64,000 nt of DNA from an uncultured Acidimicrobiaceae bacterium. Lineage in GTDB: Bacteria > Actinomycetota > Acidimicrobiia > Spongiisociales > UBA5794. The DNA is taken from the NCBI GenBank assembly GCA_964505525.1, contig CAZDIQ010000001.1:5544-69543 (forward strand), written 5' to 3'. Of the stretch, positions 19,741 through 64,000 are shown one piece after another. The notes under the pieces were generated by a model. It worked only from the letters and a program-made list of their open reading frames with translations, did no database searches and was not told the DNA's origin. A program made the translations under genes and the position numbers. Position 1 is the stretch's first letter; every line of letters starts with the position of its first letter.

Positions 19741-19822
19741 ATGCGAGAGAGCCCGCCCGGCCTGCCGGGTACAAACCGGCAACCGGACGGGCTCGACTCC
19801 CAGCGGACTGGGAGGAAGTTGC

Positions 19823-19858: not shown

Positions 19859-19865
19859 CGATCTG

Positions 19866-21583: not shown

Positions 21584-22161
21584 CAGTTCACCGTCGAGCG
21601 GACCGTCACGCCGTCGATGCCGTCCAACTGGTCGAGGATCTCCGACACCCGATCCCACTCGTCGAGGTCGACCGACACGAGCACATGGGCACGCTTCAAC
21701 GGTTTCAAGTCGACCGACTTCGGCTTCTCGGCTGGCTCGTCGTCGGCTTCGGGCAGCAGGTCAGCGATCACCGCCGACAACGAGTCCGACAAGGTGCCCT
21801 GATCGACAAGTTCGTTCAACAGGTCCGAGTTGATCTCGGCCATGCTTCCGATCGGGTCCATCAACGCCAGCATCTCATTCTCCTCAGCCTCCGACAGTTC
21901 CACCCAAGCAACCGGGATCGGACCGTCCTGTGCGAGCCCGACACGCATGTGGCCGTCCACGACCAAGCCTGTCGTCCGGTTCACGATGACCGGCGCGACC
22001 CAGCCGACATCATCCAGCACCGACGTCATCGCAGCCTTCTGCTGATCGCCGTGCACCCGCGGGTTCCGCGGGTTGGCTTCCAACTCCGACGCGGTGATCT
22101 CGCCGTACTCGACGATCCGATTCCGCCACTTGGCGTCAACCTTCGGTTTGCGTACTGCCAT
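21583..22161 (-). CDS. ParB/Srx-like nuclease-domain protein
   Basis: 'VVDGHMRVGLA' resembles the ParB-N DGHHR core; acidic C-terminus. Confidence 0.45.
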   Translation of the reverse strand: MAVRKPKVDAKWRNRIVEYGEITASELEANPRNPRVHGDQQKAAMTSVLDDVGWVAPVIVNRTTGLVVDGHMRVGLAQDGPIPVAWVELSEAEENEMLALMDPIGSMAEINSDLLNELVDQGTLSDSLSAVIADLLPEADDEPAEKPKSVDLKPLKRAHVLVSVDLDEWDRVSEILDQLDGIDGVTVRSTVN

Positions 22162-22945
22162 CGCCCCATCTCACTTCTCTCATGGCGGCCTCATCACCGG
22201 CCGCCGCCTTGTATCGCTCCGCCAACTCGTACTGCTCCTGATGCCGGTCATGCCCGTACGTCTGCGTCAACGGCTGAGGATGCCACAGATGCCAGCAGGC
22301 GCCTTCAAGCCGGGTGTGCGGCCCCCACAGGGTGTCGACGGACAGACCGAACGACGTGTCGTCAGAACCCCACTTCGCGAACCGTTCGTCGTAGCCGGTC
22401 ACCGTCGCGAACGCGCCGCGCGGTACGACGACCATCCCGGACCAGGCGACGTTCTCGCCCACCCATTCGCAGTCCTCATCCGGCCACCGGATCGGCCTCG
22501 ACGGATGATCGCGCAGGACCCGTTCCGAAGCTCGACGGTTCAGCTTGACGTAGAAGCGGGGCATCACCCACGACGCCGCCCCGGACAGGACGAGGTCGGC
22601 GGCATGAACAATCCAATCCGGGTCGAACACGGTGTCCGCGTCGGCGATGACGAACACGTCACGCGCCGCCCTCGACGCCGCAAGGTTGATCGCCTTCGGA
22701 TGATTGAAGTCACCAGGATCTTGCCGACGCCCACCGCCGTCATCGGCGACGATCACTTCGACCGACGGCAACAGCGCCGCCCATCGCCGCGCCAGCCAAC
22801 GCCACGACGTAGTGCGATGCCCGCGATCCGGACGGTACGGGACCAGCACCGAGACATGAGGCTGGCTCACGCTACGCCCTTCGCCTGATTCCACCATTCC
22901 GGATGAGGACGGTCCGGGGAGTTCCGCCAGAACGTCGCCGCGCAC
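22136..22945 (-). CDS. family-2 glycosyltransferase
   Basis: 'VIVADDGGG', 'IADADTV', 'GYDERFAKWGSDDTSF' are GT-A signatures. Confidence 0.6.
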   Translation of the reverse strand: MRGDVLAELPGPSSSGMVESGEGRSVSQPHVSVLVPYRPDRGHRTTSWRWLARRWAALLPSVEVIVADDGGGRRQDPGDFNHPKAINLAASRAARDVFVIADADTVFDPDWIVHAADLVLSGAASWVMPRFYVKLNRRASERVLRDHPSRPIRWPDEDCEWVGENVAWSGMVVVPRGAFATVTGYDERFAKWGSDDTSFGLSVDTLWGPHTRLEGACWHLWHPQPLTQTYGHDRHQEQYELAERYKAAAGDEAAMREVRWGDGSTQTEG

Positions 22946-39495: not shown

Positions 39496-39996
39496 TTACG
39501 AGCCGACGAGCACGAACCGGCCAGCCGGAACGGTCAACGTCACCCGATACACGGCGTAGCCGGGGTCCTCGACTGGGTTCACAGCACGAGGCAACGTGAA
39601 CTTGACGTCGGCCTTCATCTTCGTGGCCCCGTCCGGCAACGTCAACGTCGCCGGGATCGTGCCACGCCCCGTCGTGACCGGCCCGAAAGCGCCCGAGATG
39701 AGGGTCTGCAAGTTGGCCCACAATCCCATCCACGCGTCGTCGTGTGCCACCCCGTTCTGGTCGGCGTACCCATTCACGAACAAAGTCAACTCGTAGTCCG
39801 ATTCGTCATACCGCGACGGATACGACCGTTGACCGGCCGCGGTCGGCAACAGCACCGAGTCCGCCCGGATCGCATGCTCAACCCACAAGGCTTGCAGGTC
39901 AGTGATGTCCCAGGCCGGGCAGTTCAACGGGAAGTCGTCATCGCCGACGTCGAGCGCGCCGAGGCACCCGTACTCGTTCTCACACCACCCGGCCAT
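39496..39996 (-). CDS. minor tail protein (166 aa)
   Basis: Start overlaps TMP stop. Confidence 0.4.
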   Translation of the reverse strand: MAGWCENEYGCLGALDVGDDDFPLNCPAWDITDLQALWVEHAIRADSVLLPTAAGQRSYPSRYDESDYELTLFVNGYADQNGVAHDDAWMGLWANLQTLISGAFGPVTTGRGTIPATLTLPDGATKMKADVKFTLPRAVNPVEDPGYAVYRVTLTVPAGRFVLVGS

Positions 39997-45605: not shown

Positions 45606-46094
45606 TCAGGAACCAGTGTTGCACGGATCGCAGAACGTGACGTCGACTGACAGACGCATCGTCCACCCGGCGCAGTTCCCCATCGGCGGGTCGTCAGTCA
45701 ACGACACGAACCTGATCCACTGGTTCCACGGCGCGCAACACTTGATCGCCGCCAAGGCTTCCCAGCCGGACGCGACGAGTTCCATGCCGTCGATCGACAG
45801 TTTCTCCGCTGACCGTGCCTTCCCGGACTTCGTGTTCGACATGAAGCACTGCGAGTAGATGACGTCAACTTCGGTGCGTAGCTGCATGCACTTCGTCGAC
45901 ATCGCCGCCTCACCACCGGCCGGTGACGTCGACACTTCCTCAACGCGCAGCACGCACGGCGCCGAGCAGCATTCGATCGTCTCGCCGGAGCCAGTGGACC
46001 CGGTATGAACTTCCATACCGGGGCACAATTCTCCGAGGCAGTCGACGATGCGAGCCAACGCGTGCGCCGGGGACGGGAAACCCTTGACTGCCAC
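45606..46094 (-). CDS. Cys-rich hypothetical protein (162 aa, 12 Cys)
   Basis: ORF. Confidence 0.4.
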   Translation of the reverse strand: MAVKGFPSPAHALARIVDCLGELCPGMEVHTGSTGSGETIECCSAPCVLRVEEVSTSPAGGEAAMSTKCMQLRTEVDVIYSQCFMSNTKSGKARSAEKLSIDGMELVASGWEALAAIKCCAPWNQWIRFVSLTDDPPMGNCAGWTMRLSVDVTFCDPCNTGS

Positions 46095-46177: not shown

Positions 46178-46897
46178 TCAGCTGCCGGTTTCAATCGGCG
46201 AGAACACGCACGCCGACTCGGTGTCTTCTGGCGGGCAGTCAATGAACCGGGTGTACTGCCATCCGACGCCGTCGTTGATCGCCTCGAACGTGTCCTCGTC
46301 GGCCCACGCCGACAGGTAAGTCGGCAGTTCACCGACCGTCGAGTAGTTCCCGAAGATGGACGCCGAAACGGCCGACTGGCCGGTCATCACGAGGTCCGGG
46401 ACGTCGTCACCGTTGTACGTCGCGGCCGTGGTCTGCGCCCACTGTTCGAGGCGAGGGATGAGCACCGCCCGGCACTGCGGCTGCTCGCCGGGAACGCAGG
46501 AGTCCGACGTCGGCTCGAAGATGATCTCCAACGCGACCGAGGTCGTACCGGCGATGTTCACGTCGATGAACCCGACGATGTCCTCACCGTCGTACTGGAT
46601 CGTCTTGTATCCGGTCGCGGCTTCGAACAGCGGGTTCGACCCACAGAACGTGATCGCGTACGAGAACCCGTTGTCGGTCGGGTTCGGACGAGGCTTGTTA
46701 CAGGTCCGGCCCGACACGACCTTCGTGGGGGTCGTCGTCGGGATGTCGACGTTGCGGGTGATCTCCAACGTCTGGATCGCGTCAGCGAGGCCCTTCAACG
46801 CTGGCGTGTCGTTCTCGATGTCGGTCGGGATACGACCGCACTCGTCGAGGACGAACACCGTCATGCGACGGATCACCTGGGAATCGAAACAGGTCAC
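46178..46897 (-). CDS. putative major tail protein (239 aa)
   Basis: Size/position only. Confidence 0.3.
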   Translation of the reverse strand: MTCFDSQVIRRMTVFVLDECGRIPTDIENDTPALKGLADAIQTLEITRNVDIPTTTPTKVVSGRTCNKPRPNPTDNGFSYAITFCGSNPLFEAATGYKTIQYDGEDIVGFIDVNIAGTTSVALEIIFEPTSDSCVPGEQPQCRAVLIPRLEQWAQTTAATYNGDDVPDLVMTGQSAVSASIFGNYSTVGELPTYLSAWADEDTFEAINDGVGWQYTRFIDCPPEDTESACVFSPIETGS

Positions 46898-46967: not shown

Positions 46968-47783
46968 TCACGACCCGCCGCTCGCTGGACGGACAAGGCG
47001 GCCACGCTTCGGTGCGTCAGCGCGACGAACCCTCGGCCGCTTCTTCACGCCGTGCGGGTTGACGGCACGAATCCAGTAGTCGACGAGCAGCAGGCCGGTG
47101 AGTCCTTGATCGAGGAACGACATCGGGTCGAGAAACCCGACGGTCACACCCTGCCGGGTGACGGTCGCTACCCGTTCCGGGAGCCCACACTCGTCGGGGC
47201 AGACAACCGCTTTCGTGATCTCACAGGCCAGTCTGGCGGCAGCGAGTTCACCACCGGCTGGGACGTCGCGACCCCAAACGTAGGTGACTTCCCACGAGCC
47301 GGGCTGTCCCGGTTCGGCTTCCTGGTCTTGGCAACGCGGCCACGGGTCGCCGTCGACGCGGATCAGCAGCGGCCCCAGCTTCGACGTGCCGAGACGGTAC
47401 GCGGCAGGATCGAGAGTGTCGCCGTCGATGACGACCGACACGATCTCGGTGATCCGCTTCGACGGGAGCAACAGCTTCTCGACCCGCCCACACGAGCAGT
47501 TCCCGTATCCACAACCTCCGCACAGGTATGGGTACAACTGGAAACCTTCGACCAACGGCCAACCGGTCGGGGCCGGGCACGGCTCCGGAGTGTCGCACGG
47601 CTGGATCGTTTCGGTGCACAGCCCGAACCGGCGTCCGGTCGCAGCCCACAGGATCTCGATCGCGAACTGGGTTGCCAACTCGACGAGCAACGGGTCCGGG
47701 TCGTCGCAGTCTTCGCAGGCGATGTCAGCGACCGGCCACCAGCACGGCGCAGTGCCGTCGTCCTCGGCGCTCCATGTCGTCAC
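46968..47783 (-). CDS. Cys-rich hypothetical protein (271 aa), possible Zn-binding structural protein
   Basis: 'YLCGGCGYGNCSCG', 'CPDECGLPE'. Confidence 0.4.
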   Translation of the reverse strand: MTTWSAEDDGTAPCWWPVADIACEDCDDPDPLLVELATQFAIEILWAATGRRFGLCTETIQPCDTPEPCPAPTGWPLVEGFQLYPYLCGGCGYGNCSCGRVEKLLLPSKRITEIVSVVIDGDTLDPAAYRLGTSKLGPLLIRVDGDPWPRCQDQEAEPGQPGSWEVTYVWGRDVPAGGELAAARLACEITKAVVCPDECGLPERVATVTRQGVTVGFLDPMSFLDQGLTGLLLVDYWIRAVNPHGVKKRPRVRRADAPKRGRLVRPASGGS

Positions 47784-47793: not shown

Positions 47794-48495
47794 CTACTCG
47801 GATTCGATCGGGTCCTCGCGGAACTCGTTGAGCAGGGCTTCCATCATCTCCGGTTTGCGGCGGGCGAGCCGATACCTGTTCCGCAGAGCGAGGCCGACGT
47901 CGGAACCGACGGCCCGGTCGCGGCGAGGCGGCGTCGGATGCCACAGATGGATGCAATCTCTCGGTGCCCGGTGGACCGGTCCGGCGAGCGTCGTGAGCGC
48001 CATCCCCCACGCTTCGTCCTCCTGACCCCAGCCAACGAACCGCGAGTCGAGCGGCACCTGCTGGTACAGGTTGGCGCGCATCACGACGCAGCCGCCCCCG
48101 GTGACCGCCGTGTACGGACGTTCGGCGTGATGCTTCGGTCCGATCTGATGCAAGCCGAGCGTCCCCGCGAGCAGCTGTTCAGTGGCGGCACGGGTGAGCC
48201 GAACGACACGACGGTGAGGCATGGCCCAACGAGATGAACCCTGACGGACCGCGGTGATCGCCTGGTCGATGGCAGGAACAACGACATCGGCGTCGGTGAT
48301 GACGAGCACGTCGTCAGGGTCCGGTTCGATCACCGAGAGCGCGGCGTCGACGGCGAGCGCCTTGCACCACGGTTCGTCATGCAGGTTGCCGACCGACACC
48401 TGGAACCCGGCGTCCATCCATCTGGCCCCGACGAAGTTGAGGGCGTCGGCCCGGTGCCGGTCGTCGCCGCCGTACGGGATGACCACTCGGATCAC
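47794..48495 (-). CDS. glycosyltransferase (GT-A fold), GTG start
   Basis: 'VIRVVIPYGGDDRHR', 'VITDADVV'; N-terminal 70 aa of track ORF are antisense-like and excluded. Confidence 0.5.
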   Translation of the reverse strand: MIRVVIPYGGDDRHRADALNFVGARWMDAGFQVSVGNLHDEPWCKALAVDAALSVIEPDPDDVLVITDADVVVPAIDQAITAVRQGSSRWAMPHRRVVRLTRAATEQLLAGTLGLHQIGPKHHAERPYTAVTGGGCVVMRANLYQQVPLDSRFVGWGQEDEAWGMALTTLAGPVHRAPRDCIHLWHPTPPRRDRAVGSDVGLALRNRYRLARRKPEMMEALLNEFREDPIESE

Positions 48496-48710
48496 GGCAC
48501 GACATCCAGGAAACCGGGGATGTCCTCGGTGAACTTGACGCCGTGCCGTTCGAGGATGGCTTCGACGTCGATACCGCACAGGCAGACGTCCCGGTCGGTG
48601 GCCCAGTCTTCCCACGGTTCCCAGTCCCAGTCGGCTTCGGTCACCGGCCAACCAGCCGCGGCCATTCCGTGCACCCCTGAGATCCACTGGCCGCCAGGCA
48701 GCACCACCAT
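48492..48710 (-). CDS. hypothetical small protein (72 aa)
   Basis: Real-looking C-terminal part of ORF 48492..48920. Confidence 0.3.
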   Translation of the reverse strand: MVVLPGGQWISGVHGMAAAGWPVTEADWDWEPWEDWATDRDVCLCGIDVEAILERHGVKFTEDIPGFLDVVP

Positions 48711-48720
48711 CGTGCACACG

Positions 48721-49536
48721 TCAGAACCCTTGCACCGGGGCCGGGTCGTAGATGAGCGGCGGCTGAACATCACCGTCAATTTCGATCGCTGCGCGGGGAC
48801 GGTCCCGGTAGAACCAGCGGTGGAACAGTTCGTCGATCGTTTCGTCGTCGAACTGGCCCCACTGCCGCCAGTGTGCACCGTACATCGGGTCGAGGTCGGT
48901 GGCCTGATAGGCGGCAGCACCGTTACGGATCTTCGACAGGACCTGCTCGACCGAACGGTACGGGAAGTGACGGACGACGAGCGCCGGATTGAACAACGGC
49001 TGCCACTGGTCGTAGACAGCGCCGTGGTTGCCCATCTCGATCACCAGAGACTCGTGCCAGCGCACCGCGACCTTCGGGAACTTCCCTGGAGTGGTGCGCC
49101 GCCAACCGATGCGGAGCACCGGGTCGGGTTCGTCCGGGTCTTCGGCGGTGCACACATGGTCGTACAAGTCGGCGGGCACCACCATGTACGGGTTCGGGAT
49201 GCCAGCCAACGTGTCCGCGATCCGAGGAGCGAACGGCGAGTACCAGATCTCGTCGGCGTCGAACGGGACGATCCAGTCGGCGTCGAACATGTCGTGAGCC
49301 ATCCGGGCGAGGCCGGTCATCTTCGTCGACTGGTAGTAGCCGACTTCGTCGTCAAGCAGCTGCATCGACGGGATGTTGAGGTCGGCCAACGTTTCTTGGA
49401 TGATCTCCCCGGTGCCGTCGGTCGACATGTTGTCGGCGACGATCAACGCGTCGACCTGCGTCGCCATGTGCCGGATCGTCGTCGCGATGACATCGGCTTC
49501 ATCCTTCACCATCGTGCAACCGACTGTCGTCGTCAT
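48721..49536 (-). CDS. family-2 glycosyltransferase
   Basis: 'TMVKDEADVIATTIRHMATQVDALIVADNMSTDGTGEI'. Confidence 0.6.
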   Translation of the reverse strand: MTTTVGCTMVKDEADVIATTIRHMATQVDALIVADNMSTDGTGEIIQETLADLNIPSMQLLDDEVGYYQSTKMTGLARMAHDMFDADWIVPFDADEIWYSPFAPRIADTLAGIPNPYMVVPADLYDHVCTAEDPDEPDPVLRIGWRRTTPGKFPKVAVRWHESLVIEMGNHGAVYDQWQPLFNPALVVRHFPYRSVEQVLSKIRNGAAAYQATDLDPMYGAHWRQWGQFDDETIDELFHRWFYRDRPRAAIEIDGDVQPPLIYDPAPVQGF

Positions 49537-50174
49537 CGGCCTGCCTTCCGGACGTGGTCCCACAGGACCGGGTGGACCATCGGCAGCACGTAGCTGCTGT
49601 TGAGGTCGAAGACCAAGTCCTGGCGCCAGGCGATCAGCAGGTTCTGCCGATACCAGTTCTCGATCTCGTCGTCGTCCCATATCTCGTATCGCAGGTCACC
49701 GGACACACGGAAACCCGACACGTGGAACTGGGACTGCCAGTAGCCGGGCCATTGCTCGTTCAGATGACCGGTGCCACCCTGACCGGGGATCGCAGCCGAG
49801 AAGACGACGACCGGGGCAGCAGCGCACAGTTCACGGATGAACGAGTCGGCCCTGGACCGGTGCAGGTGTTCAGCGACCTCCAAGCAGACGGCCACATCGA
49901 ACGAGTCGGCGAGCCAGTCAAGCGAACCCTTCTTGCCGAGGTCGGCCCGATAGTACCGGTCGCCGAGCGGTGAGCCGTCACCGTCATGACCGTCGACACC
50001 GACGACCTCCCAGCCATGTCCGGCGAACTCGTGAGCCCACCATCCTTCGCCACAACCGACGTCGAGCAGACGCCCAGGTTCCAATGCCAGCCGGTCGATG
50101 AGGAACGGGACCAGCGCCGCCGCCGACGACTTGATCCCCTCTCGGATCACGTCATAGAAGTGTGCGTCGTACAT
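49533..50174 (-). CDS. class I SAM-dependent methyltransferase
   Basis: 'LLDVGCGEGWW' motif I, 'AVCLEVAEHL' motif II/post-I. Confidence 0.65.
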   Translation of the reverse strand: MYDAHFYDVIREGIKSSAAALVPFLIDRLALEPGRLLDVGCGEGWWAHEFAGHGWEVVGVDGHDGDGSPLGDRYYRADLGKKGSLDWLADSFDVAVCLEVAEHLHRSRADSFIRELCAAAPVVVFSAAIPGQGGTGHLNEQWPGYWQSQFHVSGFRVSGDLRYEIWDDDEIENWYRQNLLIAWRQDLVFDLNSSYVLPMVHPVLWDHVRKAGR

Positions 50175-50836
50175 CAGAGTCCTCTCGCTTCGTGGGTTTG
50201 CCGGTAATAGTCGTCGCCGTCCTCGGTGACGTTGAGGTATTCCATCGTCGGACGACTAGAGAACACACGGGTATAGCCGCGAGCCCAGACGTCACGCGTC
50301 AACTGCTGATCTTCTCCCGAGGCTTCCGGCGTCCAGATGATCTCCTCGTAGCGGAGGCCCTCATCCCACAACGAACGCCGGATGATCGAAGCCCCACCGA
50401 CCGGCCACGTCGGCCAGAACGCCGTCTCCTCGTCGCCGGACGCGATCAACCCGTACTGGCCGACTCCCGGATCTTTGAACGCTTCCACGACGTCGTCGCA
50501 CCAGCCGGGCAGGAACCGGGTGTCGTTGTCGATCCGATGCAGCAGCGTGGCTTCTGGCGGTGCAAGGTCGAACCCACGGTTAGTGGCATAGCCGGGGTAC
50601 ATGTTGACGCGCAGCAACAACACACGGACGGGGAGGGAGCCGAGCCATTCCTGGACGTCGCGGCGGGAACCGTTGTCGACGATGACCAACGAGTACGGCA
50701 ACGTGACAGTCGCCAGGTACGACTCCAACGTCTCAGCGGTCAAGTCGCGCCGGTTGTACGAGACGATCACCGAGTGGATGTGATGGACGGTCAATAGCCG
50801 GTTCCGTTCCGTTCGAGGCCGGTGTGATGAACCCAC
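50174..50836 (-). CDS. family-2 glycosyltransferase
   Basis: 'HSVIVSYNRRDLTAETLESY', 'LVIVDNGS'. Confidence 0.6.
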   Translation of the reverse strand: MGSSHRPRTERNRLLTVHHIHSVIVSYNRRDLTAETLESYLATVTLPYSLVIVDNGSRRDVQEWLGSLPVRVLLLRVNMYPGYATNRGFDLAPPEATLLHRIDNDTRFLPGWCDDVVEAFKDPGVGQYGLIASGDEETAFWPTWPVGGASIIRRSLWDEGLRYEEIIWTPEASGEDQQLTRDVWARGYTRVFSSRPTMEYLNVTEDGDDYYRQTHEARGL

Positions 50837-51486
50837 GGGGCGTCGTTACGGGCACCCCAGTACGCGAACCGGTATCCGGCTTCGCGCAACATCATCGTGA
50901 ACTGGCCTTCGGACTGTTCCCCTTCGGGCCAAGCGAAGTCGAACAGACTCTTGCGGTAGATGCACGGGTTCGTGGTGAAGAACAGGCTGTGCTCCAACCA
51001 GCGGTCGCCGTACATCGTCAGCAGTTCCAGGAACGCTTCCGGGTTCGCTTCGACCACGCCGCCAGCGGCCTTCTCGACCGGGTTCCACGCTTGCCGTCGC
51101 AGCGCGACCTGCGCGATGTTGGGATACGAGTCGAGGAGTTCGATCATGCCGTCCAACGGGATCAGCCGGTTGAACGTGAAGTCGTCCTCCAAGTGGAAGA
51201 TGTAGTCGGCTTCCGTCTCGGTTTGCAACACGGACCAGGCGGTACGGATCGCTCCACCGAACCCTTGACGACCGCGGGCATGGAACACGAGCGTCCATGT
51301 CGGGAACATCGACCGTAGCCAACGGTGGTTCTCCTCGTCACCGGAGTCGTCGTACAACCAACGTTCAGTGACCGCCCCGTACGGGACGTTCAGTTCGAAC
51401 GATGCGATCGTGTCGGCGATGTGCTCGCGGCGGCCGTCGGTGATCACCAAGGCTGCGACGTTCCGCCTCGGCCCGTCAATGGTCAT
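50791..51486 (-). CDS. glycosyltransferase-like protein
   Basis: 'YIFHLEDDFTF' DxD-like. Confidence 0.45.
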   Translation of the reverse strand: MTIDGPRRNVAALVITDGRREHIADTIASFELNVPYGAVTERWLYDDSGDEENHRWLRSMFPTWTLVFHARGRQGFGGAIRTAWSVLQTETEADYIFHLEDDFTFNRLIPLDGMIELLDSYPNIAQVALRRQAWNPVEKAAGGVVEANPEAFLELLTMYGDRWLEHSLFFTTNPCIYRKSLFDFAWPEGEQSEGQFTMMLREAGYRFAYWGARNDAPWVHHTGLERNGTGY

Positions 51487-52144
51487 GTCGCTCCTGTCTC
51501 TTCTGTTCGAGGGCTTGGCCGTCAGCAACACCCTTGTCGTAGGCCCGTTGCCGGACCATCACCCCGGCATCCGCTGCGCCCCTCAACAGGGCGACGCATT
51601 CCTCCTGGGTCAACGGGTCCGGGTGGTTGGTGACAGCCTTCACGACGGCCCGACACCGGGCCCCGTTCACGGCGAGCAGTCCCCAACCTTCCGGTAGTTC
51701 CGGGACGATGCGGTCAGCGAGCGGCTTCGGCGCGGCGATCCAGAACCGGTGTGCCCGGCGTCGCCATTCCTCGTTCTTCGTCAGGTCCGGGGTGACCACG
51801 CGGGCGACGGTTCCAGGTCCTCCGTGGTGGTTCGCCATCCAACTGTCAGCGGCGATCTGCTTCAACGCTGCGACCGTCACCCGACTGTGATGGTTCTCGA
51901 CACGCCCGTCCGGCCAGGTCGTCGTGTAGGTGATCGACTCGATCTCCTTCCGCCAGTCCGAATAGGAAACCTTCACTTCCACCGCGTCCATCTCGTACCG
52001 GTTCGATCGCCACAACGCGAGGACGAGCACATCAATCTTCGCCCGATACGACAACGTCGGATGCAGGCAGGCTTCCCGCAGGTGCAGGTACTTGCCGTCC
52101 GGCCAACGGCCGACCAGGGCGGCCTTCACGTCCTCCGCGGTCAT
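51476..52144 (-). CDS. MmcB-like PD-(D/E)xK nuclease family protein
   Basis: 'VGRWPDGKYLHLRE...RAKIDVLVLALW...DAVEVKVSYSDWRKE...RFWIAAP' follows the MmcB pattern. Confidence 0.45.
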   Translation of the reverse strand: MTAEDVKAALVGRWPDGKYLHLREACLHPTLSYRAKIDVLVLALWRSNRYEMDAVEVKVSYSDWRKEIESITYTTTWPDGRVENHHSRVTVAALKQIAADSWMANHHGGPGTVARVVTPDLTKNEEWRRRAHRFWIAAPKPLADRIVPELPEGWGLLAVNGARCRAVVKAVTNHPDPLTQEECVALLRGAADAGVMVRQRAYDKGVADGQALEQKRQERHDH

Positions 52145-52764
52145 CTTGCTAGCGGCCATCGACCCTCCGCCAGCCAGGCGTCGTGCGACGCGATGATCTT
52201 GTCGCGCAGCTTGCGGTCGCCAGCCGCCGACCTGTTCCTGCCGCCCTCACGGGGCACCTGATAGACCGAGTCCACGAACATCAGGTTCGCTCCGGTGATG
52301 AACGCGCGGCGGAACAGCGACCAGTCCTCCCATGCCTCCTCATCCCAGAAGCCTCCGACATCGTCGAACACGGACCGGTGGATCGCTGTGCCGATCGGGC
52401 ACGGGTTCATCGTCCGAATGTCCCGCTCCTGGAAGTGCACAGGCTTCCCGCCACGATGCTGCAAACGGGGGACCATGAGACGACCCCACGGTCCGCCGAC
52501 CTTCTCCATCGTCGCGATATAGCCGGGGGCGAGCGCGTCGTCGGCGTCGAGGAACACGATCCAACCCTGCGGGTCGAACTCGGCCACCGCCTGATTACGG
52601 GCCTGACCGCAGGACTCCGGTTGGTCATGGTGGTACACGCGGACCGGGACCGGCCGGTCGCCTTTGTGGCGGGTCTGTGTAGCCGCTGACGGCACAGCCC
52701 GCCCCATCGCCAGGTCATGCCACTTGCGGTCGCCGTACGTGGCGACGATGACGGTCACGTCCAT
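52141..52764 (-). CDS. family-2 glycosyltransferase
   Basis: 'VTVIVATYGDRKW', 'IVFLDADDAL'. Confidence 0.6.
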   Translation of the reverse strand: MDVTVIVATYGDRKWHDLAMGRAVPSAATQTRHKGDRPVPVRVYHHDQPESCGQARNQAVAEFDPQGWIVFLDADDALAPGYIATMEKVGGPWGRLMVPRLQHRGGKPVHFQERDIRTMNPCPIGTAIHRSVFDDVGGFWDEEAWEDWSLFRRAFITGANLMFVDSVYQVPREGGRNRSAAGDRKLRDKIIASHDAWLAEGRWPLAR

Positions 52765-53007
52765 CTAGAGCCACGTCTCCATGATGACCGGGTCGTCGCT
52801 GGGGGCACGTTCGATCCTCGTCAGGCCCATGTGCCGCATCTCGTCGCGTATTACCTCGACGTCGCCTGCCAGCACGAACTCGCCGTCGCTGGTTCGTGCC
52901 CCGTCAGCAGTGATCGTCCAACGTCGGGCGACGAACCATTCCGGGGCGTCACTCGGATGATCGTAGACCGTCCAGAGTGCCATCGCATCCGGGTCCTCGT
53001 CGCTCAT
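52765..53007 (-). CDS. hypothetical small acidic protein
   Basis: ORF. Confidence 0.3.
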   Translation of the reverse strand: MSDEDPDAMALWTVYDHPSDAPEWFVARRWTITADGARTSDGEFVLAGDVEVIRDEMRHMGLTRIERAPSDDPVIMETWL

Positions 53008-53687
53008 GCCCACAGATGCTTCCGTTTCGCGTAGACAATCCTCCCGGTCCGCATCCGACGTGGCTCGTCCCGGTACATCTTGTCGAGCGGGGCCTTACCC
53101 CACGACGGGTGCAGATGCTCGACGACCGAGTCGTCGGCGAACACCCACGCACCACGCGACTTCGCTGTTTCAACGAACTCGTCGTCGACGAACTCGTGCG
53201 GATACCCCTCGTGCAACACGAGGCCACACCGGTCGATCGTGCCGAACTGGTCGGCGTAGGAACGACGCACGAACGAATGTGTGGCGTGCTTCCCGGCGAT
53301 CACCCGCGGTGACCCGAGATCCTGTGTGCCGACGACACCGACCGTCGGGTCGTCGAAGTAGGCGAGCCCGGCTTCCAGCCAGCCCTCATGGAAGTGCAGG
53401 TCGTCGGCGGCCAGGAACAGGACCGGTTCGACGGTGGCCCGGTATCCGTGGTTGATCTTCTTCGCGTAGTCGCCGATGTGGGCGGCCTTCATCGTCGACT
53501 GACCGACCGAAGTCCTGTTCTCGGCGATGACGTCGTCCACTTCTGCGATCACCGCCGTGTCACCGCTGGTCGTCAGGAACTCGACATGCACCCGACGTAG
53601 ATCGGTGGCATCGGCGAGCGAATCGAAGAACGGGCGGACTCGATGCGGCCGTTGCAACAGAGGGACCAGGATCGCGACGTCAGGCAC
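53004..53687 (-). CDS. glycosyltransferase-like protein
   Basis: 'VAILVPLLQRPHRV', 'FLAADDLHF'. Confidence 0.5.
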   Translation of the reverse strand: MPDVAILVPLLQRPHRVRPFFDSLADATDLRRVHVEFLTTSGDTAVIAEVDDVIAENRTSVGQSTMKAAHIGDYAKKINHGYRATVEPVLFLAADDLHFHEGWLEAGLAYFDDPTVGVVGTQDLGSPRVIAGKHATHSFVRRSYADQFGTIDRCGLVLHEGYPHEFVDDEFVETAKSRGAWVFADDSVVEHLHPSWGKAPLDKMYRDEPRRMRTGRIVYAKRKHLWA

Positions 53688-53717: not shown

Positions 53718-54131
53718 TCATCCGTCGTTGAGACGGCGTTGCATGTCGGCGATCGTCGCTTCGTGCCGTTCGATCGTGGCTTCCATGTCCCGGATCTGTC
53801 GAGACGACGTGACCTCGTACGCCAAGAACTCGCGGCGCGTCAACATGTACTTCTCGTCCTTCGCTATCGCCTCGGCCTCCAACTGGTCGATACGGGCGCG
53901 GAGCTTGTTGTTCTCCTCGACGTAGAAGTTCGTGAACTCCCGCTGGTACTTCATCATCCACCGGACGATGAAGAACACGCCGGTCACACCGGACGTGGCA
54001 AGCAGGACGATCGCGGGAAGGTTGGCGTCCTGCAACGTCTCGGTCAGCCCCCCAGGATCAGCGGTCGCCGTGGTAAGGATCAGATGGGCGACGTCAATCG
54101 GGTTCACCGCGGGCACCCCACACCTGCACAT
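53718..54131 (-). CDS. membrane/coiled-coil protein
   Basis: TM 'AIVLLATSGVTGVFFIVRWMM' then coiled coil. Confidence 0.3.
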   Translation of the reverse strand: MCRCGVPAVNPIDVAHLILTTATADPGGLTETLQDANLPAIVLLATSGVTGVFFIVRWMMKYQREFTNFYVEENNKLRARIDQLEAEAIAKDEKYMLTRREFLAYEVTSSRQIRDMEATIERHEATIADMQRRLNDG

Positions 54132-54531
54132 CGGCTTGGCGGCGGGAGATCGCGACAAGGTTCAGGAACCCGAACACGAGAGTGGTCCCCCCGATCAACG
54201 TCCACACCGACGCGGCTGTCATCCGTGCCCGCATGTCGTAGTCCACTCCGAACAGCAGCACTTCGGAAGCGCGCAGCAGCAGCCCGACGGCGATCGTCGC
54301 CGACGAGAAGATCGTCATGTCGATCGACGTCGTACGGAACCACCAGAGCCCGGCGACGATCGCGAGAACCATGAACGGGATCGGCCGGAGCCAGCCGTCG
54401 AGCAGCACACCGTTCGCGACGACAGCGTTCCAGGCGAGCATCACACCGATCATCGCGATCCACACTCTCAGCCCGGTGTTCACCCGATGCAACGGGTGTT
54501 CCATTGGCAGGTGGTCGGCCGGGTGTTCCAT
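54094..54531 (-). CDS. multi-pass membrane protein (holin candidate)
   Basis: Four hydrophobic helices; follows endolysin. Confidence 0.4.
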   Translation of the reverse strand: MEHPADHLPMEHPLHRVNTGLRVWIAMIGVMLAWNAVVANGVLLDGWLRPIPFMVLAIVAGLWWFRTTSIDMTIFSSATIAVGLLLRASEVLLFGVDYDMRARMTAASVWTLIGGTTLVFGFLNLVAISRRQADVQVWGARGEPD

Positions 54532-54947
54532 CAGTCCGTTTCGCATGCGATCACCGCGTCCGCTCGTTCGAGGGCGAGCGTTTCGAGTTCGCCCGTCACT
54601 TGGTCCAGTTCGGCTGCTATCGCATCGAGAGGTTCGCCACGAGCCAGCAGCACCAGTCCCTCGGCGATGAGGGCGTCCATCTCGCCGTGCTTGATCGCGA
54701 AGTCCGACGCGATCTGTGACCGGCATCCCAGTTCGATACGTAGTTCGCCGTTGATCTTCTGTTGCTCGTCGACGTCGTTCTGGGCTGACGACGCGATCTG
54801 TAACACGCCGACCAGAGATATGACCATCACCAAGATGACCACGACCAGGCAGAACACCGAGAAGTACATGGTGCGCTGCCCGATGTGGCGCAGCTGCTCG
54901 TTCTCGGCGATCGGATCATGCCCATCCGACCGGGGGGTCACCGACAT
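54531..54947 (-). CDS. single-pass membrane protein (holin/spanin candidate)
   Basis: TM 'FSVFCLVVVILVMVISLVGVL' + coiled coil. Confidence 0.4.
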   Translation of the reverse strand: MSVTPRSDGHDPIAENEQLRHIGQRTMYFSVFCLVVVILVMVISLVGVLQIASSAQNDVDEQQKINGELRIELGCRSQIASDFAIKHGEMDALIAEGLVLLARGEPLDAIAAELDQVTGELETLALERADAVIACETD

Positions 54948-54989
54948 GCCCTCACCCTACCCACCACGCTCGGTGGGCAAGCGGACCCG

Positions 54990-56021
54990 TCAGGACACCC
55001 GCGGGTACACGCCGATCAGGTCCACCAGGACATGGATCGGAGTCGGCTGACCGTTGCCGCCGTCGTTCGCTCCCATCAGGATCGTGCCGTCCGGTTGAAG
55101 CGGGAACGGGCGGGCGTTGTCGACGACCTGCCACGGCTGAAAGTTGTTGAACGACGTCGACGCGTTCACACTCATGTAGCCGGGCCGGGCCTGGGCGATG
55201 GCGGTGACGTTCACCATCACCGCCGAATGCTTGACCGGGTCGACTCCGGTCGGCACAGCGAACAGGGCGGCCGGAAGCCGGTTCCCTGCGGTCCGCGAGT
55301 CGTAGATGCGGCGTTCGTCGGTCATGATGATGTCTCCCAGTTTGAGAACGATGCCAGGGTCCGGGCCAGGACCAGGGTCGGGCGGGATCGGCGGTGAGAG
55401 GTACTCAGACAGCCGCAGACGCCACATGGAGGCGTTCCACGGGTCGTACAGGCCGTTGAACGGCTCAGCGTCCCACGCGCCGGACGGGTCGATCTTGCGG
55501 CCACGCGGGGTCGCGTACTCGAAGTGGGTTGTGACCTGGCCGACATGCCAGCCACGGTTACGGAGCAACGCTGTGGAGACGCGGCCCCGGAAGTCGATGA
55601 GCCCGTCCGGCCAGTCCTCGAACGGCCCGCACCCTTCGATCCCGATCGACGAGCCGTTCCCGGCTGGCGCACCCCAGACGTAGCTGCCTACCCCGGCGTG
55701 GTTGCTGCGGCCCGCAGCGATGAGGATGACGTGCGGGTCCAAGTTCTTACCGGTCCACTTCACACCCGGCCGAGTCGCGGTGACCAGCAGCTGCGAGATC
55801 GGGCCCGGCGCGACCGTGTTCCCGGCGATGATCCCGTTGATACAGGACTGCGGGTCGTGACCGACCCGGCACATGCAGGCGGTGTGATGCTCGACGATCC
55901 CGGACGGGAAGAACGCGCCGGGCCGGTAGCTCGACGCCCATCCGGGCACGGTGATGATCTTCGGCTTCACGACCGGGTCCGCCTGCAACGCGGGCAGCAT
56001 CCACAACGCCAGATCAGGCAT
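54990..56021 (-). CDS. endolysin, N-acetylmuramoyl-L-alanine amidase (Amidase_2/PGRP) domain
   Basis: 'VEHHTA', 'RSNHAGVG', 'SSIGIEGCG', 'THFEYA..RKIDP' correspond to Amidase_2 zinc-binding blocks. Confidence 0.65.
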   Translation of the reverse strand: MPDLALWMLPALQADPVVKPKIITVPGWASSYRPGAFFPSGIVEHHTACMCRVGHDPQSCINGIIAGNTVAPGPISQLLVTATRPGVKWTGKNLDPHVILIAAGRSNHAGVGSYVWGAPAGNGSSIGIEGCGPFEDWPDGLIDFRGRVSTALLRNRGWHVGQVTTHFEYATPRGRKIDPSGAWDAEPFNGLYDPWNASMWRLRLSEYLSPPIPPDPGPGPDPGIVLKLGDIIMTDERRIYDSRTAGNRLPAALFAVPTGVDPVKHSAVMVNVTAIAQARPGYMSVNASTSFNNFQPWQVVDNARPFPLQPDGTILMGANDGGNGQPTPIHVLVDLIGVYPRVS

Positions 56022-56232
56022 GCGGGAACTCCACCGTCTGGCCGGTCGTACGGCCAGGGACGTAGTCGATCTCCGGGAGCGTGTCGGGCACGTCCGGGAC
56101 CGGCACCCCGAACGCCTCCGCGGCCTCGTGCAGTTCGGCCTTGTACGCCTCGACAGCTACGGAGTCATCGACATCCTCGTCGAAGTCGTCGAACGTGTTC
56201 TCGTCGGTCACGGAGAGCACGCTACCCGTCAC
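56014..56232 (-). CDS. hypothetical small acidic protein
   Basis: ORF. Confidence 0.3.
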   Translation of the reverse strand: MTGSVLSVTDENTFDDFDEDVDDSVAVEAYKAELHEAAEAFGVPVPDVPDTLPEIDYVPGRTTGQTVEFPHA

Positions 56233-56279
56233 CCGACAGCGCCCGCTCGTCCTCGAACAAGCGGGCGCGCCGTGGAACG

Positions 56280-56742
56280 TCAGTCAGGCGATGGACCGAT
56301 ACCGAAGTTCGGGAACAGCTTCGGGTCTGGTTGACTCGGTCCGGTCGTCGAAGATGTGACACCGAACGGCTTGTAGATGCCGAGGTACATGCCGACCGAG
56401 ATGACGAAGCCGATCAGCCAGGTGATGATCACAGGTTCGGTCAGGGCGAGGGAGCCGTCACCGACGGTGTTGTTCACGATGAGAGCGTTCAAGGCGTTCA
56501 ACGCGAGAGTGATCAGCGCCTTCCATTTCGCGGCGAGCGCAGCGGTCGTGGCGATGCCGTTGACGATCGGGATGACCGCGGCGACGAGCAACGACACCGC
56601 CAACGCGGACAGGCGTAGCTCGGCGACCGTGTCACCCGGATCGACGTCAGCCGCCGACGCGACGAGCGGCGCGGCGCACCAGGCGACGAAGGCCAGCAGG
56701 AACGCTGCGAGCAGCATCCGCCAGCGGGTGGTGAGGTTCATG
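56280..56742 (-). CDS. membrane protein with signal peptide
   Basis: 'MLLAAFLLAFVAWCAAPLVASA' + 3 TM. Confidence 0.4.
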
Positions 56743-56802
56743 GTCGAGACTCCTTCGGTAGATGGTTCGACGAGAACCAGCATGACACGCGAAGCGGTCA
56801 GG

Positions 56803-61500: not shown

Positions 61501-61729
61501 CGAACGGTGACCCGGCCACAGCGTTCCAGGAGCCACCGTCGATCGACACCTGGACCGCGTAGCCGGTCGCGTCGTCGACCGCGTCCCAGGAGACGAATAT
61601 CTTGTCGTCGTCCTCGGCTATGACGGTCAGCCCGGCCGGTGTCGGGAACGGCGGCCCACTGGTGACCCCGGTGCCTTGTGACCCTTCACGGAGCCCGGTG
61701 CCGTTCGACCCCGCCCGTACGCCGGTCAC
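58532..61729 (-). CDS. large fibre-like protein with FN3, LamG/ConA-like and LVIVD beta-propeller repeats
   Basis: FN3 ('TGYAVQVSIDGGSWNA...EYCYRVRAIG', 'VWYEVEVSTGGGTYV...YAYRIRSVNAGGKSEWSAP'), LamG-like ('ITLFWLSRP...NEFAVRLNPTGQL'), LVIVD-like repeats ('LFVVDVSDP','LLLIDVSDP','SIASIDLSDP'). Confidence 0.55.
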   Translation of the reverse strand: MTGVRAGSNGTGLREGSQGTGVTSGPPFPTPAGLTVIAEDDDKIFVSWDAVDDATGYAVQVSIDGGSWNAVAGSPFVGTSFEETGLDEGTEYCYRVRAIGPESMSPWSAPVCAETLPNPPIIYDVTTSGPASPRTLSYPDGIQPGESLWVLQWGFSLPTYVGFTDVFTQTSYGSGYVMTISHLPSAVGDETGPVPIASGTTASSGAVCIRTSPAQLGAAVDARRANVNLASSPALALQRAPSTVMYFAHGYNTLTFTSFDVATELLKQNSLSDGYGTLIAWEEDPDGGAAPIRTMQFGPSSNSLRGICTFELVIPPEIDFDVDDEVPYDVLAVDDTAVVELLDVIDVDATENIDYTVLDVDDEPQVDVFSPALSAAILALTPTGFWKLNDASGQMQDSSGNARHSTTAGGVTYRAVQGPISDRFVQMISSAVVIPDADAWTPGSSGITLFWLSRPITLDDKRFWGKGVAPNQRNEFAVRLNPTGQLISELMIANGGILRRATAPTAAVGLNAWQAFCVTMDGNTDAATIEQYKNSNTPLGKTDFSGATGTVPNDTADLWLASSYSLNNSVAGGHAFFAIFTGVLTEEQIGSLMEAAQVDGWIAPIPVDESEAVVDVDGSTVTIEWPPVPGAVWYEVEVSTGGGTYVPAPGGPIWWGPIFSSAEVPPGSYAYRIRSVNAGGKSEWSAPIPVEVGGGSGFKVGSWDMPEDWRWLGITPGGKVITAEWGDPVTVSFTQLLPDDDPITEVTFSIGAGPSDGLLLAATEQVAFIQRWDTDNDYASMLSAYDADGIVLSEIDMDAATGFYAVIKSVAFGLHAGLAYLWVVDSNLAEDGGVLFVVDVSDPADMSIIGSLTTVPLADGDLSRMHVMDGHIYIACGADSNDDGILLLIDVSDPTAPFVAATENVTISLNDNSYVMIDGPGWAVVRCEDVGSSIASIDLSDPESPVVVDVIKESSIFNFLNLLDQPFGGMSTSGVVYANGQRRPYKYQTFVDVIPIPAELYDEGIEDYLVGMCYLNISDRESLSASFEHEGVTQVLNGAYINGQTVWFDYYGPLRVADGFPGFPE

Positions 61730-63159: not shown

Positions 63160-63915
63160 TCAGCTGGACCCGCAAGCCCGCAGCGCCGAGGCGTACGGTG
63201 CACGGGCACCCGACGGGCAAACCACCGAGTCGATGCGGACCGATTCGCAACCGAGCATCGCGAAGCCGATCCACTCCTCCATGAACATGGCGAAGTCGTT
63301 CGTCTTGTTGAGCGTGTGGTCACGGACCAGGCCGAGGTCGAGAGTGCCGCCGTCGAGCCGGACGAACGTGCCCGGCGCAAACAGGAAGCTCGTGACTTCC
63401 AGCGGGAAGTCGTTGAGGTCACCCTCGATCTGCGGGTCGGCGAGCGTGTTCAACGCCTCGGTCGACGTCGGGTCGTCGTAGTAGAACGTGACGTCCAGGT
63501 TCCGGACCGAAAGCGCTTCGGTCACGGCCGAGTCCGGCACGTTCATGTAGTCGAGGCCCTGCGACCCGTCGTTGAACAGGTCGGCCTTGACCAGATCGAT
63601 CGACCAGTCCGGCATCAGAGCGTTGAGACGTGCCCCTCGCGGCATGTGGTGACGCTTCCGGTAGCCGACCGCTGCGACCGTCAGGTCGTAGAGCAGGCTA
63701 CGAGAAGCACCGTACGAGCCGATGCCGTTGGCGTGCGTCGAATGCGCGTCGATGGCGTCGAGGTAGTACCTCTGCTTCTTCAACGTGAACTGGACGGCGA
63801 CGTCCTCCTGGAAGTTCTCGATCAACTCCGGGAACGTCCGGTATTGGAGGTTGTCGAACAGCGTGCACTGCGTGATCGCCTCCACGAGCACTTCGTCGAT
63901 CTCCGGGCATGTCAC
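63160..63915 (-). CDS. hypothetical structural protein (possibly capsid-related; may extend beyond window)
   Basis: ORF at window edge. Confidence 0.25.
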   Translation of the reverse strand: MTCPEIDEVLVEAITQCTLFDNLQYRTFPELIENFQEDVAVQFTLKKQRYYLDAIDAHSTHANGIGSYGASRSLLYDLTVAAVGYRKRHHMPRGARLNALMPDWSIDLVKADLFNDGSQGLDYMNVPDSAVTEALSVRNLDVTFYYDDPTSTEALNTLADPQIEGDLNDFPLEVTSFLFAPGTFVRLDGGTLDLGLVRDHTLNKTNDFAMFMEEWIGFAMLGCESVRIDSVVCPSGARAPYASALRACGSS

Positions 63916-64000
63916 CCGGTCGCACGGCTTCTCGACGAGCGGGTTGGTCTGCGCCGAGTCCTCGCAGTCGTAGAAGCCGATCGCGCCAGCGCCTGCGATG

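Follow-up and report, generated by a model that had tools for sequence, protein, structure and literature searches.

A glycosyltransferase cassette that travels with C-terminal Gly/Ala-Ser tails on virion proteins: a candidate virion glycosylation module in an uncultivated soil actinobacteriophage

Glycosylation of phage virions is already known as a phenomenon; to our knowledge it has so far been shown for the particles of a few mycobacteriophages and for no others, and evidence beyond the actinobacteriophages is said to be scant. The subject of this study is a cluster of glycosyltransferase genes, interspersed with a methyltransferase gene and a nuclease-like gene, on the minus strand of a 64,000-nucleotide stretch of phage DNA (contig CAZDIQ010000001.1, positions 5,544 to 69,543; this whole stretch is referred to as the window). 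The closest described systems are those of the mycobacteriophages Che8 (gp108-110) and Corndog (gp35-38). Excerpts of PMC12619734, which cites Freeman et al. 2023 on this point, and of PMC11600133 and PMC12363180 report that capsid and tail-tube subunits of these phages are glycosylated, with the glycans at the C-termini, and an excerpt of PMC12363180 reports that Che8 gp110 and Corndog gp38 are essential for capsid glycosylation. As read from the deposited genomes, the capsid and tube proteins end in ...NKTGS and ...YSDGS in Che8 and in ...PLVGS and ...IKGDS in Corndog. The window cluster is a copy of a conserved cassette that is found in many uncultivated phages and that travels together with virion proteins bearing a C-terminal [Gly/Ala]-Ser tail, and it is probably a module for glycosylating virion proteins at such tails. 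The genes in question, in the order of transcription and followed by one outlying gene, are as follows.

53004..53687, minus strand: glycosyltransferase GT_A, which opens the cassette and is the best conserved of its glycosyltransferases; its Pfam Glyco_tranf_2_3 score of 23.5 bits falls short of the cut-off of 27
52765..53013, minus strand: open reading frame (ORF) orf82, 82 amino acids (aa), between GT_A and GT_B; coding-type G+C content at third codon positions (GC3); called as an 80-aa gene in Logan assemblies
52141..52764, minus strand: glycosyltransferase GT_B; Pfam PF00535 (Glycos_transf_2) at 2.4e-7, phrog_14775 at 6.3e-9, phrog_8858 at 9.5e-4
51476..52159 (likely start 52144), minus strand: MmcB-like PD-(D/E)xK protein, between GT_B and GT_C; phrog_5429 'DNA repair protein'
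50791..51486, minus strand: glycosyltransferase GT_C; no Pfam match of its own, phrog_3047 'galactosyl transferase' at 3.6e-19
50174..50836 (likely start 50794), minus strand: glycosyltransferase GT_D, outside the conserved cassette; Pfam PF00535 (Glycos_transf_2) at 5.6e-13
49533..50174, minus strand: class I S-adenosylmethionine (SAM) methyltransferase; Methyltransf_23 at 9.9e-13 and 48.6 bits (cut-off 27), also Methyltransf_25 and Methyltransf_11
48721..49536, minus strand: glycosyltransferase GT_E; Pfam Glyco_tranf_2_4 at 4.5e-12
48492..48710, minus strand: orf72, 72 aa, between GT_E and GT_F and in a frame different from that of GT_F; called as a gene in Logan contigs
47794..48495, minus strand: glycosyltransferase GT_F, last gene of the cassette; no Pfam match, phrog_1721 'galactosyl transferase' at 6.7e-11
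22136..22945, minus strand: glycosyltransferase GT_G, outlying paralog of GT_F; phrog_1721 at 9e-21, Pfam GT2 at 26.5 bits

The initial annotation, which was made from the sequence alone, had named nine of these genes, and all nine were recovered on the minus strand with boundaries that agreed to within a few codons; the two small coding ORFs, orf82 and orf72, had been missing from it. Its call of six clustered GT-A glycosyltransferases held for every gene, each being backed by a Pfam, PHROG, or fold match and by a DxD-type motif that follows a beta-strand (TDAD, DADE, DND, EDD, DADD, and ADD), and its outlying GT2 gene is GT_G. Pfam GT2-type scores above the cut-off were obtained for three of the six clustered enzymes (GT_B, GT_D, and GT_E) and for GT_G. 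GT_C belongs to a family in which 6 of 13 orthologs match the Pfam GT2 profile (PF00535) and the EDD motif is invariant; a profile search of PDB sequences with GT_C returned a weak match to B4GALNT1 and nothing else. The methyltransferase call was supported by the Methyltransf_23 match together with motif I (LLDVGCGEG). Tandem duplication was ruled out as the source of the glycosyltransferase set, the sole detectable mutual similarity being that between GT_F and GT_G (32% identity). An N-terminally extended version of GT_F (47794-48717) was also rejected: the GC pattern of the extension is non-coding in that frame, another frame of the same segment holds the 72-aa ORF, and the ortholog of GT_F in a close relative of the window phage (L021) fits the shorter length. 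Of the frames in this gap, that of orf72 alone combines a coding-type GC3 with freedom from stop codons.

The window shares much with the Che8 and Corndog systems. In all three, a cluster of small soluble GT-A enzymes is combined with a methyltransferase function, and G-S or G-x-S stands at the end of both the capsid and the tube protein (...GSS and ...TGS in the window); in Corndog, the cluster likewise lies within the structural operon. Two of the three Che8 glycosyltransferase families are represented in the window. GT_F and GT_G are members of the gp109/gp37 family (phrog_1721), with hhalign probabilities of 81% for GT_F against Che8 gp109 and 96% for GT_G against Corndog gp37, and GT_B shares its family with the N-terminal glycosyltransferase domain of Che8 gp108 (phrog_14775/8858), the direct pairwise similarity in this case being weak (E value, 0.003). 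The resemblance to mycobacteriophage virion O-glycosylation cassettes that had been suggested at first inspection is supported by the shared families, by the site in the late operon upstream of virion genes, by the Gly-Ser endings, and by the co-occurrence of tag and cassette in other phages. There are also clear differences. Che8 and Corndog have three glycosyltransferases, compared to six or seven in the window; GT_A and GT_D are without a relative in any deposited phage; and the window has the tag also on the head-tail adaptor and on two proteins encoded among the tail genes, as well as a nuclease gene embedded in the cluster. Corndog gp35 and the C-terminal domain of Che8 gp108 belong to phrog_6608, whereas the window methyltransferase belongs to Methyltransf_23 and has no PHROG match and no similarity to gp35. 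It may nevertheless play the same role as the phrog_6608 enzymes, despite the difference in family.

The deposited phage record closest to the cluster is Caudovirales GX15bay (MK557849), from a mangrove-soil metagenome. It has six clustered glycosyltransferases and a methyltransferase, and it is the sole deposited phage record with part of the set, namely adjacent orthologs of GT_B (35% identity), GT_C (42%, a galactosyltransferase), and GT_E (43%) in the same order. However, GX15bay is without orthologs of GT_A, GT_D, and GT_F, and its cluster is located upstream of the terminase gene, not between capsid and tail genes. The small GX15bay protein encoded upstream of the terminase (19531-19863), which is the counterpart of the small-terminase-like protein of the window, ends in ...DELEGS, which could be due to chance or could mark a further tagged protein.

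Outside the deposited genomes, relatives of the cassette are abundant. GT_A is unmatched among the 50,697 deposited phages, yet more than 575 metagenomic homologs with 50-62% identity were found, and 224 IMG/VR contigs contain a GT_A relative. Eighty IMG/VR cassette loci were surveyed, and counts of gene architecture were made on the 49 in which the retrieved sequence extends 4.5 kb or more downstream of GT_A. All five glycosyltransferase families (A, B, C, E, and F) were present in 41 of these 49, with exactly the order ABCEF in 30 and ABCMEF in 7, M being the methyltransferase. The methyltransferase is thus an optional member, located between GT_C and GT_E, and it occurs in 13 of the 80 loci. 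Relatives of the nuclease, GT_D, orf82, and orf72 were found in none of the 49 loci.

The complete order GT_A, GT_B, GT_C, methyltransferase, GT_E, GT_F was also found in L022, which is an unrelated siphophage with an HK97-type capsid, and in L023, a 111-kb relative of the window phage. The proteins of both are 35-59% identical to those of the window (53-58% for the methyltransferases, which occupy the equivalent position), and in both the cassette sits between capsid and tail genes. Orthologs of GT_B keep their position in L022, L023, GX15bay, and the IMG/VR loci, and orthologs of GT_E that are 43-57% identical occur in GX15bay, L021, L022, L023, and the IMG/VR loci. In L021, genes for GT_C, GT_E, a DUF1643 protein, and GT_F lie directly upstream of the adaptor gene. 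The L021 ortholog of GT_F is 45% identical and of equal length, and that of L022 has a Pfam Glyco_transf_7C match. The cassette is likewise present in a genome contig of Parafrankia soli NRRL B-16219 (NZ_MAXA01000047), a putative prophage, where it has the order ABCEF and adjoins a gene for a capsid protein that ends in ...TAGS, and on contigs of metagenome-assembled genomes assigned to Solirubrobacterales, Ilumatobacteraceae, and Mycobacterium. Across these copies the orthologs are 30-60% identical to the window proteins and have the same order and orientation, beside capsid and tail genes with [GA]S C-termini. The cassette is horizontally mobile and common in uncultivated actinobacterial phages. 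This A-B-C-(MT)-E-F arrangement, where MT is the methyltransferase, was recognized on IMG/VR, JGI, Logan, and GTDB contigs, and no description of it was found in the papers searched.

Compared with these copies, the window has the order A-[orf82]-B-[nuclease]-C-[GT_D]-MT-E-[orf72]-F, and the cluster is therefore the canonical cassette with four lineage-specific insertions. GT_D is unlike the other glycosyltransferases of the window and has no match in the deposited phages or in the 80 IMG/VR cassettes; orf82 has no family match and is absent from the same 80 cassettes; and no homolog of orf72 was found in the IMG/VR cassettes. The place of orf72, the junction between GT_E and GT_F, is filled by the DUF1643 gene in L021 (1206-1607 of that contig), and it seems to be an insertion hot spot. 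The initial annotation had called the cluster unusually large. This is correct in relation to the cultured mycobacteriophages, with their three glycosyltransferases, but a cassette with five glycosyltransferases is the norm in the 49 IMG/VR loci, and the window cluster is larger than these by one glycosyltransferase.

The second element of the system is found at the ends of proteins encoded around the cluster. The window proteins with a C-terminal Gly-Ser ending, together with the capsid protein, are the following.

63160..64000, minus strand: major capsid protein, C-terminal part; phrog_777 at 4e-42; ends in ...ACGSS
46968..47783, minus strand: head-tail adaptor; phrog_783 at 3.5e-66; ends in ...ASGGS
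46178..46897, minus strand: major tail (tube) protein; phrog_792; ends in ...IETGS
45606..46094, minus strand: 162-aa protein encoded among the tail genes; ends in ...CNTGS; possible acceptor
39496..39996, minus strand: 166-aa protein whose gene comes directly after that of the tape measure protein; ends in ...PAGRFVLVGS; possible acceptor
24563-25216, plus strand: small-terminase-like protein, upstream of the large terminase; ends in ...HERGS

Five of the 67 ORFs in the window end in GS, compared to 0.34 expected (P = 2.6e-5), and the capsid protein ends in GSS. Four of the five, as well as the capsid protein, are virion proteins, and these four (the adaptor, the tail tube, and the 162-aa and 166-aa proteins) are encoded in the structural block beside the cluster. 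The small-terminase-like protein with its ...ERGS ending was not counted as a predicted substrate, and its ending may be due to chance, with 0.3-0.8 such endings expected in the window. Alignments indicate that the GS tails are short lineage-specific extensions. Orthologs of the 166-aa protein stop at ...PAGRFA, and the window version has a five-residue extension that ends in GS; orthologs of the 162-aa protein (in L018 and L019) are without the extension of about six residues that ends in GS. Relatives of the tail-tube protein have a conserved C-[ED]-L-R-A core, to which GS is added in 3 of 18 representatives, and the tube ends in GS in L020 and L021 too. Only 5 of 68 adaptor homologs end in GS, and one of them (L021) is encoded directly downstream of GT_C, GT_E, and GT_F orthologs. 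The L023 capsid protein, encoded beside the cassette, ends in ...ACDAS. The capsid protein and that of the tail tube are predicted glycan acceptors, with the adaptor as a predicted additional acceptor, and in the window phage the tag is extended to connector proteins as well as to products of genes that lie among those for the tail.

The same association was found in other phages. Among the C-terminal dipeptides of 1,098 distinct ORFs from the 80 IMG/VR cassette loci, GS (63 ORFs) and AS (43 ORFs) rank first and second, and together they account for 9.7% of ORF ends compared to 1.2% expected from composition. The ORFs with [GA]S endings are concentrated on the cassette strand, where those just upstream of GT_A are about 290-330 aa long (capsids) and those downstream are about 120-220 aa long (tail tube and neighbors). 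A control within one protein family came from the HK97-type capsid that is encoded ahead of many cassettes, of which 80 relatives were collected. All nine of the capsids followed by cassette genes end in ...LEP-x-x-[AS]-S. In contrast, a GS tail was present in 2 of the 51 capsids whose downstream sequence runs for 2.5 kb or more without a cassette, and the other 49 stop at the ...YPF-x-x-L-x-P core or have other untagged endings (Fisher p = 5e-6 for the strictly comparable subset, 5 versus 2/51, and 4e-9 overall). Tails were absent from the controls SPI1 and GX15bay. We conclude that phages with the cassette tend also to have virion proteins with a C-terminal [Gly/Ala]-Ser tail, and this association is most simply interpreted by taking the tail as the glycan acceptor.

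On this basis, the cluster is predicted to be a late-expressed, cytoplasmic virion-protein glycosylation module that acts on C-terminal Gly/Ala-Ser tags, a reading to which we assign a probability of about three in four. Soluble GT-A enzymes would assemble an O-linked oligosaccharide from nucleotide sugars of the host, with each enzyme presumably forming one linkage, and the methyltransferase would O-methylate one of the sugars. The glycan would be built on a short C-terminal tag, Gly/Ala-Ser-COOH, that capsid and tail-tube subunits of phages with the cassette have acquired. In the window phage the system would be expanded by an extra GT2 enzyme inside the cassette (GT_D) and a second gp109-like enzyme elsewhere (GT_G). 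GT_A might be guessed to be the initiating enzyme because it is the most conserved glycosyltransferase and the first in the cassette. By analogy, the benefit to the phage could be the shielding of its surface.

Several observations weigh against this reading. GX15bay shares GT_B, GT_C, and GT_E, yet its structural proteins are without GS or AS tails, and the presence of these three enzymes is by itself no sign of the tag. No recognizable tagged ORF was seen in 15 of 66 cassette upstream regions, nor in L108, L113, and L114, and the ORFs of the survey were called with a crude GC3-based caller. Two HK97-type capsids (L135 and L187) are tagged (...GSGS or ...KSGS), and the 8 kb downstream of them are devoid of cassette genes; either their glycosyltransferases are encoded elsewhere in the genome or a different enzyme set uses the tag. 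The virion proteins of Che8 and Corndog are glycosylated, whereas the window phage is known from sequence alone, and even in Che8 and Corndog the terminal serine is a probable acceptor that is deduced from the reported C-terminal location and from the sequences. Finally, no homolog of gp110/gp38 (phrog_854) was detected, either by PHROG searches or by BLASTP and hhalign of all seven glycosyltransferases (probability, <1%), and the initiating enzyme, if there is one, would come from another family. With no relative of gp110/gp38 and with a methyltransferase from a different family, the window system appears to work like the Che8 and Corndog systems without simply being a member of the same group.

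The location of the cluster, the solubility of its products, and the structural relatives of GT_A bear on whether the enzymes act on the virion or on the host. The genes bordering the cluster on its upstream side are the following.

53718..56021, minus strand: lysis block, upstream of the cassette, with an Amidase_2 endolysin and two transmembrane proteins
54990-56021, minus strand: endolysin; phrog_880, Pfam Amidase_2
54531-54947 and 53718-54158, minus strand: the two transmembrane proteins of the lysis block; hydrophobic segments with KD19 values of 2.2-3.4

The originally proposed placement of the cluster, between lysis genes upstream and the adaptor and major tail protein genes downstream, is accurate. 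The cluster genes overlap by 1-19 nucleotides or are separated by 0-10 nucleotides, and this run continues into the adaptor gene. Scans for promoters and terminators gave fewer matches in the cluster than in shuffled sequence, with no internal signal above the controls. The tight coupling of the genes into the adaptor gene and the lack of a standout promoter or terminator therefore place the cluster in the late structural operon. No membrane-spanning segment was found in the cluster proteins; the adjoining lysis proteins have them.

An alternative function for the glycosyltransferases would be the modification of the host envelope (arabinogalactan, lipoglycans, teichoic-acid-like polymers, or capsule) during infection or lysogeny, blocking superinfection or changing a receptor in the manner of Gtr- or TarP-type enzymes. 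The AlphaFold (AF2) model of GT_A (predicted local distance difference test score [pLDDT], 96.6) has Foldseek matches to SpsA, TarP, RmlT, and PcManGT (E values, 1e-9 to 1e-7). TarP is a prophage wall-teichoic-acid glycosyltransferase, and it and RmlT would fit a role at the envelope, as would the PHROGs category of these families ('moron / host takeover') and the presence of cassette copies in bacterial genome contigs, which may be prophages. However, the identity of GT_A to its structural matches is 11-16%, and the similarity, including that to TarP and RmlT, is generic to the GT-A fold. The enzymes have no membrane segment, and the scan of the cluster genes turned up neither a flippase nor a gene of polyprenol type. 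Furthermore, the cassette is part of the late structural operon, with translational coupling to the adaptor gene, and elsewhere it lies between capsid and connector genes, and its co-occurrence with C-terminal [GA]S extensions would be left unexplained. Thus, modification of the host envelope seems unlikely, and glycosylation of virion proteins is preferred.

Another possibility is an auxiliary metabolic module with no connection to the virion, in which the glycosyltransferases and the methyltransferase would synthesize or modify a small molecule, or else an oligosaccharide that is free or bound to lipid, such as a methylated glucan resembling the sugar chain of mycofactocin. GT_D and GT_A do have their best NCBIfam matches to the mycofactocin glycosyltransferase MftF (1.7e-7 and 1.5e-6, respectively), and the methyltransferase weakly matches MftM, the methyltransferase for the mycofactocin oligosaccharide (0.0026). 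These scores of about 17-30 bits are nevertheless far from the cut-offs of 200-280, as expected from generic similarity among GT2 enzymes and class I methyltransferases; no mycofactocin genes are present; and neither the synteny with virion genes nor the association with the tag would be accounted for. A small-molecule product is therefore extremely unlikely. An NCBIfam match to thymidylate synthase was also far below threshold and was set aside as generic or spurious.

The nuclease-like gene had been assigned to the MmcB-like PD-(D/E)xK proteins, and at the level of the superfamily this assignment stands, on the basis of the motif and a fold match. In an alignment of 28 sequences, D43, E61, and K63 are invariant within the family motif D-A-V-E-V-K-V-S-x-S-D-W. 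The AF2 model (pLDDT, 91) has an alpha-beta core, and the sole Foldseek match in the PDB with an E value of ≤0.001 is 3dnx (E value, 8.3e-6; probability, 1.0; template modeling [TM] score on the target, 0.66). The protein 3dnx (SPO1766) is, we assume, the structural representative of PF06319. The window protein thus has in common with the MmcB-like family a D...E-x-K-x-S-x-x-D motif on a PD-(D/E)xK-type core. It differs in that its own family is phage-borne and in that it carries an insertion of about 55 residues (approximately residues 70-125) and a long C-terminal helix that are absent from the 146-residue 3dnx chain. At the level of the Pfam family the threshold was not reached: the window protein has no match to PF06319 at E ≤ 1, and 7 of 28 relatives have weak matches to PF06319 (MmcB-like; best E value, 0.0016), with no other family recurring. 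A profile search of PDB sequences was uninformative.

Relatives of the nuclease adjoin genes for DnaB, primase, Pol III alpha, and RecA, and in other cases an SMC-like ATPase, Ku (in L007), or a DNA methyltransferase; in IMG/VR phages the neighbors include AAA_24, YqaJ, HerA, RtcB, a PAPS-reductase-like protein, and a C5-methylase. No glycosyltransferase was found within 6-10 kb of nuclease relatives in 13 loci. The nuclease was present in none of the other cassettes examined (the 49 IMG/VR loci with enough downstream sequence, L022, L023, and GX15bay), and it is a lineage-specific insertion between GT_B and GT_C. Because its relatives are located in replication and recombination modules and it is absent from every other cassette, it is best explained as an inserted DNA-metabolism gene, a co-transcribed passenger that probably stands outside the glycosylation chemistry. 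The nuclease, which the initial annotation had left unexplained, is accordingly best regarded as an unrelated mosaic insertion and as an example of such an insertion into an otherwise stereotyped operon.

It has to be considered that the nuclease might function within the cassette, for example, as a homing-type endonuclease that mobilizes it or as a non-nuclease scaffold for the glycosyltransferases. Its gene overlaps its neighbors by 4-19 nucleotides at the start and 11 nucleotides at the end, which implies co-expression, and the cassette clearly moves between unrelated phages. However, the cassette moves without the nuclease, as the survey of other copies demonstrated; the invariant D...ExK motif is what would be expected for an active nuclease; and the replication and recombination neighborhoods of the relatives point to another role. 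A function of the nuclease in the cassette is therefore very improbable.

The nuclease was also considered in relation to the phage DNA. Phages are known to have systems in which several glycosyltransferases glycosylate DNA (Pyle et al. 2024, as described in an excerpt of PMC12619734), and the cluster could conceivably hypermodify DNA with an oligosaccharide, for example, on 5-hydroxymethylpyrimidines, as protection from restriction, with the nuclease functionally linked to this activity. The location of the nuclease inside the cluster and the rich DNA-metabolism repertoire of the phage would be in line with such a system. Yet the scan of window genes revealed no thymidylate-synthase-like hydroxymethylase and no other gene for base modification, with the approximately 36 kb of the approximately 100-kb genome that lies outside the window inspected in part. 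Moreover, the absence of the nuclease from all other copies and the lack of glycosyltransferases beside its relatives speak against a functional link, and DNA hypermodification would explain neither the position of the cassette between capsid and tail genes nor its association with a protein tag. It is very unlikely that DNA is the substrate; virion proteins are the predicted one. A DUF5131 (phage Gp37/Gp68-type) protein is encoded at 20132-20968, about 1.2 kb from GT_G, and another DUF5131 protein is encoded near the nuclease relative in L208.

A broader proposal, which we put forward tentatively and at slightly less than even odds, is that the cassette and the [Gly/Ala]-Ser tail form a general, portable 'writer plus tag' system of soil actinobacterial phages, far more widespread than the mycobacteriophage system and distinct from it because the gp110-type enzyme is absent, that glycosylates any virion protein gaining a tail of two to five residues. 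If this were true, virion glycosylation would be common among environmental phages and not a peculiarity of mycobacteriophages, and the tag would be sufficient to direct the glycosylation of heterologous proteins. If the main reading holds, a different, larger, and well-conserved enzyme set would do the same job as that of Che8 and Corndog, and a C-terminal Gly/Ala-Ser extension would predict which virion proteins are modified; this rule could be tested with a tagged reporter protein, and one of the strains that carry the cassette, Parafrankia soli NRRL B-16219, can be cultivated. Such a system would be relevant to phage surface chemistry in soil, to the shielding of therapeutic phages from antibodies, and possibly to the enzymatic glycosylation of proteins by means of a compact tag.

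The window has a G+C content of 64%, and nearly all of its genes are on the minus strand. A megablast search of the region against the 50,697 deposited phages gave no DNA-level match, and the same sequence recurs in Logan metagenome assemblies (SRR30863580, SRR30863582, and SRR16798008), the longest contig measuring 100,320 bp; the phage has been seen solely on metagenome contigs (Logan, JGI, and NCBI). Relatives of its adaptor are scattered over phages of Mycobacterium, Gordonia, Microbacterium, and other actinobacteria with identities of ≤38%, and the window therefore represents a novel, uncultivated actinobacteriophage, from soil. An IMG/VR scan with the adaptor as a single protein found no relative, and alignment-based scans were needed.

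Transcription of the region proceeds from the major capsid protein gene through genes for a phrog_779 protein, a 1,065-aa fn3/ConA-like protein, and a 557-aa protein to the lysis block, the glycosyltransferase cluster, the head-tail adaptor gene, and the major tail protein gene. These are followed by the tape measure protein gene (39996-44159), minor tail protein genes, replication genes, a divergent terminase gene, and then genes for the portal and a giant MuF-HNH protein. The capsid gene extends beyond the window edge and encodes the full 595 aa on contig L013. In the window copy the cassette is separated from the capsid gene by the lysis block and three large genes, whereas in L023 there are just two genes between capsid and cassette. 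The segments 54990-58476 and 58532-61729, which are interposed between capsid and adaptor, contain the lysis block, the 557-aa protein (no family match), and the 1,065-aa protein, which is fn3/ConA-like-lectin in type.

The large terminase gene (25216-26742, plus strand) and the portal gene (8225-10312, minus strand) are on opposite strands and about 15 kb apart, with replication genes between them. The scattering of head genes in the window is reminiscent of an uncommon arrangement of genes that has been reported in some Rhodococcus phages. Beyond the portal gene, three adjacent genes (43-8228, minus strand) resemble a toxin-bearing set of head proteins.

3990-8228, minus strand: MuF-like head-morphogenesis protein, 1,412 aa, fused to HNH-type nuclease regions
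3253-3990, minus strand: PemK/MazF-like protein
43-3000, minus strand: 985-aa protein with a Zeta_toxin domain

It is possible that the MuF-HNH, PemK/MazF-like, and Zeta_toxin proteins are polymorphic toxins that are packaged in the virion. Genes for Ku and an ATP-dependent ligase, a non-homologous end joining (NHEJ) pair, are located outside the window at 1218-4573 of contig L013, a few kilobases upstream of the capsid gene.

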